The notes beneath the pieces are model-generated. The model did no database searches. It was not told the origin of the DNA and saw only the letters and a program-made list of their open reading frames with translations. The position numbers were made by a program, and so were the translations under genes. A stretch of DNA of 64,000 nt. It comes from an uncultured delta proteobacterium. Lineage in GTDB: Bacteria > Desulfobacterota > Binatia > UBA9968. Positions 10,261 through 12,759 of this stretch are shown here, in pieces. Positions within the stretch are counted from its first letter, which is position 1; the number at the start of each line of letters is the position of its first letter. The DNA lies in contig CAVSHR010000005.1 of the NCBI GenBank assembly GCA_963727625.1, forward strand, positions 352,001-416,000, read 5' to 3'.

Positions 10261-10289
10261 TTGACATGACAAACCTTCGCAGATACCTT
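10261..10289 (+). promoter_or_regulatory. Putative sigma70 promoter of the amidase-actin unit
   Basis: Perfect TTGACA, 17-nt spacer, then TACCTT, about 45 nt upstream of the amidase start. Confidence 0.55.
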
Positions 10290-10332
10290 TTGTAAGTTAC
10301 CGATTTTATTCCCAAGTTTGATGCCGGCGGCG

Positions 10333-11331
10333 ATGGCTAGTACACAAGAAACCAAGGCTGAGATCTTACGCGCTGTGGTCCAGGATAACATCAATGTGAT
10401 CCATGGCGTAAAAGCGACGAGAGTCCAACCCCGCAAGAGCAGGACTCGGATCTGGCTATGGGGCGGCTTGCTCACTGCAGGAACGGCCTATTTCACCCTA
10501 GCTATGGCCGTCATTCCAAAAATAAACACGCCGACTCCAAGCGTAAAACCTGCGCGAGTCTCGACAGCGAGCGCCGGCAATTTTTCGGACACGGATCTTC
10601 TCCTTGCATCTCCCCGGCCGATCGATCGTAAAGCGATTCCGCTTGCGATCAGGACTGTCGTTATCGATGCCGGCCACGGTGGCGAACCGGGGACGGCGGC
10701 AGAATCCGGAATTACCGAGAAAGAAATCACTCTGGATCTGGCGCTGCGCTTGCGTCGCCACTTGAAACAAGCCCCGTTTAAAGTGTTATTAACCCGCGAC
10801 ACGGATCGTCGGCTGCCACTCGACAAGCGCGTGGCCTTCGCCAACCAAAATAAGGCGGATCTCTTTGTATCGATTCACTTGAATTGGATGGAACCGCACA
10901 GCATTCGCGGCGTCGAGACTTATTACGTCGGCCCAACCGATGACCCTTCCGTACTCAAGTTAGCCAGCCGGGAAAATAAAGAATCAGGCTATTCGCTTTC
11001 GGATTATAAGAAAATTCTTGAAAAAATTTACGTTGACACGCGCCGTCATGAATCTCACATTCTGGCGAAAACCGTTCAATCCCAATTGTTCCGGGCGCTC
11101 AAAGAAAACAATCCTGACTTGGAAAATCGCGGCGTCAAAACGGCGCCGTTTGTGGTTTTGATCGGCACACAAATGCCGGCAATCTTGATCGAAGTCGCCT
11201 GCCTCTCCAACCCGGAAGAAGTACAGTTGTTGACAAAAGAGGAGTATCGGGAAAGTATCGCCGTGGCTCTGGCAAGGGGCATACGTAGCTACGCAAACAC
11301 ATTTAATATGGCTGATAGGAAAGGCAGTTAA
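10333..11331 (+). CDS. Membrane-anchored N-acetylmuramoyl-L-alanine amidase (Amidase_3)
   Basis: Zn/catalytic motifs DAGHGG, EKEITL, SIHLN and IEVAC. N-terminal charged tail, one hydrophobic helix (IWLWGG...AVI) and a P/S/T linker. Start could also be 10318 or 10321. Confidence 0.9.
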   Translation: MASTQETKAEILRAVVQDNINVIHGVKATRVQPRKSRTRIWLWGGLLTAGTAYFTLAMAVIPKINTPTPSVKPARVSTASAGNFSDTDLLLASPRPIDRKAIPLAIRTVVIDAGHGGEPGTAAESGITEKEITLDLALRLRRHLKQAPFKVLLTRDTDRRLPLDKRVAFANQNKADLFVSIHLNWMEPHSIRGVETYYVGPTDDPSVLKLASRENKESGYSLSDYKKILEKIYVDTRRHESHILAKTVQSQLFRALKENNPDLENRGVKTAPFVVLIGTQMPAILIEVACLSNPEEVQLLTKEEYRESIAVALARGIRSYANTFNMADRKGS

Positions 11332-11334
11332 TCG

Positions 11335-12366
11335 ATGGACGAAGCAAACGATACCCTCTGTGTTGGGATCGATCTAGGCACCTCTCGCAGCTCCATTTCG
11401 GCATCCAATGGCGAGCGCCACGTCGTGGATAGTTACGTCGGCTGGCCAGTGGACATGGTGGCGCGCAAATTGGTGAAAAAATCCGTGCTCATTGGCCGCG
11501 AAGCTCTGGATAACCGCCCCATGCTGGACCTGCGCCGGCCGCTCGAACGGGGAATAATGAAGGAGGGTTCCGAGAGGGATCAAGAGGCCGTTCAGGAACT
11601 CGTGCGTCATTTGATTTCCTTGGTCGGTATCAAGCAGAAGGGAAAAAACAAAGCAAAGGTGCGCGCTGTAGTCGGCGTTCCGGCAGAGGCCTTTCGTGTC
11701 AGTCGCCAGAACCTGCGCAACACCATCGACGGGATTGCTGAAAGTGTAATGATGGTCTCGGAGCCGTTCGCCGTCGCCTATGGACTTGAAGCGTTGCTGC
11801 ATTCCCTGGTCATCGACGTCGGCGCCGGGACTGCTGATTTTTGCGTGATGCAGGGCCGCTATCCTACCGAAGAGGATCAAAAGACCCTGCCTAACGCGGG
11901 CGACTCGATCGACGAGCAATTGATGAAATTGATTCGAGAACGCCATCCTGACGCTCAGTTCTCGATCCATATGCTGCGCGAATGGAAGGAAAGTCGGAGC
12001 TTTGTCGGCGAGCCCAAGGATCGAGTCATGGTCAGCGTGCCCATCAAGGGGAAAATGACTGAAATCGATATCACCCAGGAAATGCGGACGGCTTGCGAGA
12101 GTATTCTTCCACCGCTGTGCGAAACCATGACCGCGTTACTCATGAAAGTCGACCCCGAGTATCAGGATAAAGTGCGCGACAACGTTATCCTCGCGGGCGG
12201 GACGTCGCTCATTTCCGGACTGCCGGAGGCGATCGCCAACGCGTTAAAAGATTTAGGCGGCGGACGAGCAACGGTGGTCAATGATCCAGTATTTGCCGGG
12301 TCGGACGGCGGCCTCGCCATTGCCCGCGATGCTTCGAGCTCGGACTGGGACAAACTGTCCCTTTAA
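11335..12366 (+). CDS. MamK-like actin-family ATPase
   Basis: Actin motifs GIDLGTS, VGVPA, SEPFAVAYGL, IDVGAGT and LAGGTS. Features recalled as MamK-type: YVGWPVD, PTEEDQ-x-TL-x2-AG, KE-x2-SFVG, PEYQ and a C-terminal W-x2-L. Confidence 0.85.
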   Translation: MDEANDTLCVGIDLGTSRSSISASNGERHVVDSYVGWPVDMVARKLVKKSVLIGREALDNRPMLDLRRPLERGIMKEGSERDQEAVQELVRHLISLVGIKQKGKNKAKVRAVVGVPAEAFRVSRQNLRNTIDGIAESVMMVSEPFAVAYGLEALLHSLVIDVGAGTADFCVMQGRYPTEEDQKTLPNAGDSIDEQLMKLIRERHPDAQFSIHMLREWKESRSFVGEPKDRVMVSVPIKGKMTEIDITQEMRTACESILPPLCETMTALLMKVDPEYQDKVRDNVILAGGTSLISGLPEAIANALKDLGGGRATVVNDPVFAGSDGGLAIARDASSSDWDKLSL

Positions 12367-12459
12367 GGCTCCTATCGGCCCGCGAGGCATCGGGTTAGTT
12401 GTCTGCGCGAACCCGGCGATCATGCCACACGATAACGTTTCATTGCGCTGAAACCGAAA

Positions 12460-12759
12460 ATGAGCGATTGGATTTCCGACGTTCTGCTGTTTTCTGCCGG
12501 TATTGCGGGCGGGGTGTTGATTATGACCCTCATCCCGGTGCTGCGCGCGGATAAACGGCGTCGCACCGAGCTCGTCGCCGCGCGCTCGCGCATCCTCGCC
12601 GACATTAAGGACAAACACGAAGAGGAAATTCTCGAACAGGCCTTCCGAACCACCGAGGCCATTCGCGGCGAACTGGACCATTCGTTACAAACCTTGCGAA
12701 AAACGGTTACAACCGTACTGACGCCGCTGAGCAATCAAGAAATCAATGGCCGCCAATAA
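12460..12759 (+). CDS. Small single-pass membrane protein with helical tail
   Basis: N-terminal hydrophobic helix (VLLFSAGIAGGVLIMTLIPVL), basic stop-transfer RADKRRR, then a charged amphipathic region. Confidence 0.65.
   Translation: MSDWISDVLLFSAGIAGGVLIMTLIPVLRADKRRRTELVAARSRILADIKDKHEEEILEQAFRTTEAIRGELDHSLQTLRKTVTTVLTPLSNQEINGRQ

Follow-up and report, generated by a model that had tools for sequence, protein, structure and literature searches.

A MamK-related actin gene paired with a gene for a membrane-anchored peptidoglycan amidase with a predicted actin-binding tail in uncultured bacteria

A 64,000-nucleotide (nt) stretch of contig CAVSHR010000005.1 (positions 352,001 to 416,000, assembly GCA_963727625.1) from an uncultured delta proteobacterium of the class Binatia was analyzed, and this whole stretch is referred to as the window. 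Within it, a gene for a bitopic N-acetylmuramoyl-L-alanine amidase is followed directly by a gene for an actin-like ATPase related to MamK. The two genes are conserved as a pair in related loci from several bacterial lineages, and a conserved tail on the cytoplasmic side of the amidase is predicted to dock into a cleft of the actin. These data are best read as a module in which a cytoplasmic actin filament would position or regulate a periplasmic wall hydrolase.

Three co-oriented open reading frames (ORFs) on the + strand were found in the ORF listing at 10318-11331 (337 amino acids, aa), 11335-12366 (343 aa) and 12460-12759 (99 aa). They encode the amidase, the actin and a small membrane protein. 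With the last base of the amidase stop at 11331 and the actin ATG at 11335, the spacer is 3 nt. A first-pass annotation, made by a model from the letters of the window, had described the three co-oriented genes and this spacer, and the listing agrees with it on both. The longest amidase ORF opens at a TTG (10318). In 62 of the 74 tail-bearing amidase homologues a methionine stands in the column of the ATG at 10333 (M6 of the ORF), so this ATG is probably the start, giving a protein of 332 aa; the ORF itself begins in that column in 37 of the 74. Amidase residues are numbered from this ATG.

The pairing was examined in 80 loci, the best among 174 relatives in species-representative genomes, and all 80 come from metagenome-assembled genomes (MAGs). 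They are labelled as, among others, Binatia, 'delta proteobacterium', Syntrophobacter, Rokubacteria/Methylomirabilota, Acidobacteriota (Thermoanaerobaculia, Holophagae and Terriglobia) and Entotheonellia. Among the loci whose flanks are syntenic with the window, the NCBI labels conflict (Binatia, delta proteobacterium, Syntrophobacter, Chloroflexota and Eisenbacteria). By tblastn, the amidase lies immediately upstream of the actin in 78 of the 80 loci, and the other two (L071 and L085) begin at the actin with no upstream DNA. The two genes overlap or are separated by at most 10 nt in 65 of 75 measured loci, with a median gap of 3 nt; four loci have gaps of 100 to 205 nt. When flank ORFs of at least 70 aa were clustered, the amidase and the actin were the only genes common to all lineages, and the remaining large clusters were antisense shadows or synteny among near relatives. 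Across 57 loci, pairwise divergence in the amidase tracks that in the actin (r = 0.90; none of 999 permutations gave so high a value), with the amidase changing at about 1.9 times the rate of the actin. The pair also occurs in G026, which belongs to the same phylum and has an actin of 50% identity. There, a 360-aa Amidase_3 gene with the same N-terminal motif overlaps the actin start by 32 nt. The amidase linkage that the first-pass annotation had proposed from one locus is thus a conserved one.

The distribution of the actin was counted with matches at E 1e-80 or better, including the genome of the window (G000). Within the family it is present in 53 of 90 genomes, or 50 of 87 without the three unpublished genomes G370, G387 and G405. 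By genus, it was found in 24 of 30 genomes of g1, in 8 of 8 of g227 and in 0 of 12 of g144. At the class level 3 of 151 genomes carry it, all within that one family. At the phylum level it occurs in 7 of 201 genomes, where the amidase-linked type was seen in the window genome and G026, with G061, G098 and G131 outside the inspection. In metagenomes, the actin forms thousands of clusters at 90% identity. The guanine-plus-cytosine (GC) content of the module matches that of its flanks in 17 loci (0.540 vs 0.565 in the window). The module is an accessory one, common yet dispensable. Judged from sequence, it descends vertically within groups, is lost in some members, and has a scattered occurrence across lineages labelled as several phyla. 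Recent transfer was considered and rejected: the 10-12 kb bin has the lowest GC content of the window (0.52), but the module is close to its flanks in GC content, and 16 other loci show the same. Two observations on copy state were made in addition. An actin copy at G394:C43:369999-370769, in the same family, has two in-frame TGA stops and is a possible pseudogene, and G361 holds two actin copies, on contigs C23 and C807.

The actin was compared with known families and solved structures. Its best family by far is the NCBIfam MamK model NF040964, on which it scores 374.7 bits, below the cut-off of 400. On the BeeR model NF053558 it scores 211 bits against a cut-off of 530, and on two MreB models 55.4 bits (cut-off 365.75) and 65.9 bits (cut-off 293). 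Solved MamK (5ljw, 5jyg and 5ljv) aligns across residues 3-341 of the actin with E 1.8e-74, so that the alignment begins at residue 3 and there is no N-terminal extension. The next match in the PDB is 8r2n, a 386-aa 'actin family protein' (E 6.2e-41), and the best MreB structure reaches E 1.9e-7. The translation contains YVGWPVD, SEPFAVAYGL, PTEEDQKTLPNAG, KESRSFVG, PEYQDKVRDNVILAGG and a W-x2-L end (in ...DWDKLSL). The first-pass annotation had described a motif-by-motif match to MamK and a lack of match to MreB, and the structural alignments and model scores bear out both. The nucleotide-binding motifs D13/G15, D161/G163/G165 and G288/G289 are invariant across 66 actin sequences.

The phylogenetic position of the actin was determined with a tree of 94 rows built by IQ-TREE in quick mode under LG+G4, with Shimodaira-Hasegawa-like approximate likelihood ratio (SH-aLRT) values as the only support measure. 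The rows comprised 70 of 150 listed 50%-identity representatives (the other 80 covered less than 300 residues of the query and were excluded), the window actin with every third sequence of alignment A2 (22 rows, 44 of the 65 loci being left out), and the two MreB-like proteins of the genome as outgroup. In this MreB-rooted tree, the amidase-linked actins form a single separate clade inside the MamK radiation (SH-aLRT 100), and the window actin does not group with canonical MreB. The clade also includes P0121 and the long-branched P0169, and its sister is P0124 (52% identical). The marker of the true-MamK clade is P0146 (MamK model, 508 bits; PDB MamK, 463 bits). A basal BeeR-like clade is marked by P0233, with 506.5 bits on the BeeR model. 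Representatives of the other branches outside the true-MamK clade score 371-425 bits on the MamK model, near its cut-off. From the tree and the model scores, MamK proper is therefore one branch of a wider radiation and the window actin is another. By these comparisons the actin is placed in the MamK radiation, apart from both true MamK and BeeR. The family is hidden by automatic annotation, because among the best 120 matches of two protein searches every source-named match of this clade is labelled 'rod shape-determining protein' or MreB, except one 'hypothetical protein'.

Fused forms also occur in the MamK family. In 16 cases (P0135, P0139, P0142 and 13 other representatives) the actin domain is C-terminal in a long protein of 490-1232 aa. 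Fourteen of these 16 domains form one clade (SH-aLRT 99), while P0177 and P0191 fall in the true-MamK clade. The long N-terminal parts of P0135 and P0142, the two that were scanned, have no Pfam family.

The amidase belongs to Pfam Amidase_3 (E 8.7e-51). Its best solved relatives are Bartonella AmiB (3ne8, E 2.3e-30) and E. coli AmiA (8c2o, E 3.7e-26). Residues H115, E129, H182 and E287 are invariant in the amidase alignment A1 of 69 sequences. We take these to be the metal ligands and the catalytic residue from what is known of the family, and the enzyme is probably active. The AlphaFold2 model (mean predicted local distance difference test score, pLDDT, 76.7) together with A1 gives the layout of the protein: a helix at 3-23, a basic linker at about 24-38, a transmembrane helix at 39-57, a disordered linker to about 107 (pLDDT below 50 for 57-91) and a confident catalytic domain at 108-325. 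Within this domain, helices 205-218 and 222-230 have a lower pLDDT than the rest. Structures 3ne8 and 8c2o align in one continuous stretch through residues 200-255, which is their regulatory-helix region. The cyanobacterial amidase 5emi aligns in two stretches that skip residues 200-254, and for CwlV (1jwq), 4rn7 and LytH (7tj4) the best stretch ends at about residue 199-206. Residues E214 and N215 in the insert are invariant in the 69 sequences. This putative regulatory insert aligns with the regulatory-helix region of AmiA and AmiB, and the amidase is probably regulated. No AMIN domain was matched by Pfam in the actin-linked amidase. In the modeled layout, this periplasmic targeting domain is replaced by the membrane anchor and the cytoplasmic tail.

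The tail is conserved nearly as well as the catalytic domain. The mean top-residue fraction is 0.56 for residues 1-25, 0.33-0.36 for the linker, the transmembrane helix and the periplasmic linker, and 0.67 for the catalytic domain. The tail motif is K-x2-Φ-L-R-x2-V-x-[ED]-N. Its residues were counted in 74 sequences: K8 in 71, a hydrophobic residue at 11 in 74, L12 in 63, R13 in 64, V16 in 69, [ED]18 in 71 and N19 in 73, followed by G25 in 61.

A complex of the two proteins was then predicted from the actin alignment and amidase tail residues 1-40. The interface score ipSAE was 0.82 (0.83, 0.81 and 0.82 in the separate runs), compared with 0.03 for the best of three controls. In calibration, the ipSAE mark was attained by 58 of 80 solved complexes and by 2 of 110 mismatched pairs, counts that serve as a rough guide since our own alignments were used. 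The docking runs had at least 93% of contacts in common, with a partner pLDDT of at least 66. In the predicted interface, residues 4-23 of the tail touch residues 124-128, 139-155, 174-176 and 329-343 of the actin. From the position in the fold, we infer that the predicted site is the cleft between actin subdomains IA and IIA together with the C-terminal helix. At this interface Q125, R128, L155, A333 and D337 are invariant in 23 of 23 members of the amidase-linked clade, and Y176 is kept in 21 of 23. Those positions differ in the true-MamK and other MamK-family rows, where, for example, 128 and 333 are L/I/M and 337 is Y/F/H. The BeeR-like rows differ at 125, 155, 176 and 337, and keep R128 in 6 of 7 and A333 in 4 of 7. 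These residues are the strongest internal support for a predicted, clade-specific tail-binding site on the actin.

Taken together, the linkage, the conserved tail and the predicted docking favor the inference of the first-pass annotation that a dedicated actin filament positions a wall hydrolase. None of the three outcomes that the annotation had named as refuting was observed: the actin stands apart from canonical MreB, the amidase linkage recurs in other genomes, and of the magnetosome proteins searched (MamI, MamP and MamQ) none exceeds its cut-off in the genome. We regard it as fairly probable that a cytoplasmic filament positions or regulates the periplasmic amidase. In the proposed mechanism, the actin probably polymerizes in the cytoplasm with ATP. 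The amidase would cross the inner membrane once and would present an AmiA/B/C-type catalytic domain with its putative regulatory insert to the periplasm, while its short conserved cytoplasmic helix would stand in place of the AMIN targeting domain of AmiC. This helix would dock in the actin cleft, at the 139-155 segment, residues 174-176 and the C-terminal helix. The filament would then set, from inside the cell, where and possibly when the extra amidase cuts peptidoglycan. A bolder version seems rather doubtful: actin polymerization would move the amidase, with the tail riding filament ends in the manner of ParM-ParR, or would switch it on by transmembrane release of the regulatory helix. If this were true, these uncultured soil phyla would drive and time the cutting of their wall from the cytoplasm, with no targeting domain in the periplasm.

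Several points weigh against a positioning or regulating filament. The docking score is the model's own confidence and comes from alignments that we built. Partners often bind actins by a helix placed in a cleft, and the model may favor such an arrangement. If the cleft overlaps the longitudinal contact of the filament, the tail may bind only monomers or filament ends. The regulatory insert of proteobacterial amidases requires a periplasmic LytM activator; because the amidase has a putative insert of this kind, its control may come from outside the cytoplasm. The module is missing from genus g144 and from two genomes of the window's own genus that are 98-99% complete, so its function is dispensable. 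No cultured carrier is among the best 120 matches of the two protein searches, where every named match is a MAG.

Other explanations of the pair were weighed against the same evidence. The amidase could be a peptidoglycan-bound anchor that fixes the actin filament to the wall, with the filament organizing some other cargo. The linkage and docking data fit this arrangement too, and MamK itself organizes cargo through adaptor proteins according to the available part of PMC11929497. The invariance of the metal-binding and catalytic residues nevertheless favors a working enzyme, and there is no conserved third gene to encode a cargo or an adaptor, which makes the anchor unlikely. It is also improbable that the actin is a non-filamentous ATP-dependent switch on the amidase tail, acting for example by transmembrane release of autoinhibition and not as a positioning track. 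Such a switch would suit the putative regulatory insert of the amidase and the predicted placement of the tail on one actin monomer, at a cleft where the subunits of a filament may touch. However, the actin aligns over its full length with filament-forming MamK, its nucleotide motifs are intact, and both characterized relatives, MamK and BeeR, polymerize (PMC11929497, available part). We give similarly little weight to mere co-regulation of the two genes, for example in a stress or differentiation program, with products that never touch. A high model score does fall short of proof of binding. However, such a program would leave three results without a reason: a cytoplasmic tail conserved nearly like the catalytic domain, clade-specific invariant residues at the predicted interface, and an adjacency kept across lineages that are labelled as several phyla and whose flanks differ.

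A phage or plasmid cassette, composed of a signal-anchored endolysin and a ParM-like segregation actin, was suggested by PHROG matches to endolysin families (E 2.1e-33) and to a partition protein (E 4.3e-10). These matches reflect generic domains only. Chromosomal metabolic flanks, syntenic in about 20 species, surround the module, no phage genes are nearby, and module and flank GC content agree in the 17 loci. Such an origin is very improbable. The five neighbor genes that were scanned encode UbiD, an ornithine cyclodeaminase family protein, an NMT1-like binding protein, a DUF5666 protein and a beta-helix protein.

The genome of the window was searched for magnetosome genes and for the standard wall machinery. 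The assembly has 6.6 Mb in 15 contigs, with 98.45% completeness and 6.3% contamination, and the window lies on contig C5. A search of sequencing runs gave three DNA runs with small shares (0.09-0.14) and no RNA run. In this genome the top MamP match reaches 32.7 bits (cut-off 300) and the top MamQ match 75.9 bits (cut-off 250). MamI has no match, which is a weak negative, since the MamI control was positive in no control genome. A canonical mreB (542.9 bits) is clustered with mreC and rodA on contig C6, and ftsW lies on C12. A separate mreB elsewhere in the genome, which the first-pass annotation had named as a point to check, is thus present. The same annotation had reported that mam, mad, mreC, mreD, rodA and pbp2 are missing from the 64 kb. 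This agrees with the placement of mreC and of the two RodA/FtsW matches on other contigs, and with MamI, MamP and MamQ staying below their cut-offs genome-wide; no search was aimed at mad, mreD or pbp2. A standard AMIN-Amidase_3 protein is also encoded on contig C4, and at least two Amidase_3 genes are present in 5 of 5 other carrier genomes checked. Judged from these gene contents, the actin-linked enzyme is an additional, division-type amidase beside the standard machinery, and the locus is taken not to be part of a magnetosome system. An origin as a leftover or displaced portion of a magnetosome gene cluster, with a true MamK, would agree with MamK being the best-scoring family and the best solved relative. 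It is already contradicted by the score below the MamK cut-off, the separation from the clade marked by P0146, the lack of MamI, MamP and MamQ above cut-off, the metabolic neighbors, and the different make-up of an apparent magnetosome cluster in the same phylum, which has FeoB and a CDF transporter beside the actin.

That cluster is locus L102 (G008:C17, 267-6261). Its 43%-identical actin stands beside FeoB, a ferredoxin-like protein, small glycine-rich membrane proteins and the CDF transporter, and it looks like a real magnetosome cluster, unlike the window locus. A further actin of 42% identity, at L101 (G019:C1, 5907-9214), is preceded by proteins of 651 and 117 aa without a known family, downstream of an ABC-2 transporter pair. 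It has neither an amidase nor magnetosome genes nearby, occurs in four genomes of one genus, and looks like a further MamK relative outside magnetosomes, with a partner of another kind. The window genome also holds a second, divergent MreB-like gene (L005, G000:C2:58888-59829) with 179.4 bits, under the mreB cut-off and apart from the mreB on C6.

The module was compared with known systems. MamK (NF040964; 5ljw, 5jyg, 5ljv) is the closest characterized family, with a full-length alignment, shared nucleotide motifs and the C-terminal W-x2-L. The window actin differs from it in its score under the family cut-off, its separate clade, its lack of a magnetosome context and its amidase partner, and residues 128, 155, 176, 333 and 337 of its cleft are unlike those of the true-MamK clade. 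The amidases AmiA, AmiB and AmiC with their LytM activators (3ne8, 8c2o, 4bin) share the catalytic domain and the invariant residues, and their regulatory-helix region aligns with the insert of the window amidase. Unlike them, the window amidase has neither an AMIN domain nor a cleaved signal peptide, and it has a cytoplasmic tail and a transmembrane anchor. In ParM-ParR and MreB-RodZ, the link between an actin-like filament and its partner is a short helix, or a domain, bound to the body of the actin. Their partners and purposes (plasmid DNA for ParM-ParR, the elongasome for MreB-RodZ) are unlike those of the amidase module, and ParR binds filament ends.

The closest functional parallel is found with another polymer. 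As described in the available part of PMC10945521, the bactofilin BacA and the bitopic M23 peptidase LmdC of Hyphomonas neptunium and Rhodospirillum rubrum are encoded by clustered genes, the hydrolase is recruited via a conserved cytoplasmic motif, and the arrangement occurs in many bacteria. There, too, a cytoskeletal gene adjoins the gene of a bitopic hydrolase with a conserved cytoplasmic motif. The BacA-LmdC system has a bactofilin polymer, an M23 endopeptidase and a beta-hairpin motif, whereas an actin, an Amidase_3 enzyme and a helix take these places here. Recruitment in BacA-LmdC was shown experimentally according to the same text, while the actin-amidase coupling is predicted from genes and a model. 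BeeR is reported, in the available part of PMC11929497, as a three-stranded tubular actin of Verrucomicrobiota that is related to MamK, occurs in non-magnetotactic hosts and has no known function. The window actin is likewise a MamK relative in non-magnetotactic bacteria. It differs in its score far below the BeeR cut-off, in its place in the tree, where BeeR-like sequences branch near the base, and in lacking an N-terminal extension of 30-50 residues. Amidases do not appear in the available text of the BeeR paper (PMC11929497) or of a MamK/Mad28 survey (PMC10653835). A literature search found no description of an amidase-linked MamK-like actin; only two papers contained both 'MamK' and 'amidase', and both were unrelated. 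The module is undescribed in the literature searched.

To our knowledge, the bacterial actins with a known partner are few, namely MreB, FtsA, ParM and the Alps, and MamK. A large and well-conserved branch of the MamK radiation now has an obvious partner and a predicted binding site. This offers a concrete and testable answer to the question of what the non-magnetotactic relatives of MamK do. If the coupling is true, it would be a second, independent polymer that recruits a bitopic wall hydrolase by a cytoplasmic tail, after bactofilin-LmdC. The enzyme would represent a division-type amidase whose AMIN targeting domain has been exchanged for a cytoplasmic one. The tail motif and the cleft residues are direct handles for mutational tests.

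The features of the locus are collected in Table 1. Upstream of the amidase, the letters TTGACA-N17-TACCTT are present as the first-pass annotation read them, and their role as its promoter found no support: the -10 hexamer matches TATAAT at 3 of 6 positions, a promoter scan of the region did not call the site, and the scan found 1 site where 2.2 were expected from shuffles.

Table 1 Coordinates of the features of the amidase-actin locus, in window positions.
Feature	Position	Strand	Basis
Promoter-like TTGACA-N17-TACCTT	10261..10289	+	Weak, unsupported as a real promoter
Bitopic N-acetylmuramoyl-L-alanine amidase, 332 aa (probable start)	10333..11331	+	Pfam Amidase_3, PDB relatives, invariant residues
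Amidase cytoplasmic helix, residues 3-23, predicted actin-binding tail	10339..10401	+	Motif counts, AlphaFold2 helix, predicted interface 4-23
Amidase transmembrane helix, residues 39-57 (predicted)	10447..10503	+	AlphaFold2 model
Periplasmic Amidase_3 catalytic domain, residues 108-325	10654..11307	+	Pfam, alignment, PDB, AlphaFold2
MamK-family actin-like ATPase, amidase-linked clade, 343 aa	11335..12366	+	NCBIfam, PDB, tree, nucleotide motifs
Small bitopic membrane protein, 99 aa	12460..12759	+	No family; hydrophobic segment from residue 4

The third gene was counted by the first-pass annotation as part of a three-gene module. The amidase and actin pair of that module is conserved, but the small membrane protein is not part of the core. 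The 99-aa protein matched no Pfam, NCBIfam or PHROG family, and an atlas search with it gave only matches below 0.9, to unnamed clusters. Its N-terminal hydrophobic segment is followed by a conserved charged helical stretch, which is probably cytoplasmic as judged from sequence. By tblastn the gene is present in 18 of the 80 loci, all within the 34 first-listed loci L010-L043, whose actins are 69-93% identical (79-93% in the carriers). The protein is lineage-specific, and it may be a tether or regulator of this lineage. In the other loci that were scanned, the gene after the actin is unrelated and encodes a NUDIX protein, a DNA ligase, a hydrolase, a luciferase-like protein or, in L067, a protein without a Pfam family. 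In two Acidobacteriota loci, L089 (7025-8212) and L075 (3683-5065), the actin is followed by the gene of a membrane protein of 395-460 aa that has a SPOR domain at its C-terminus.

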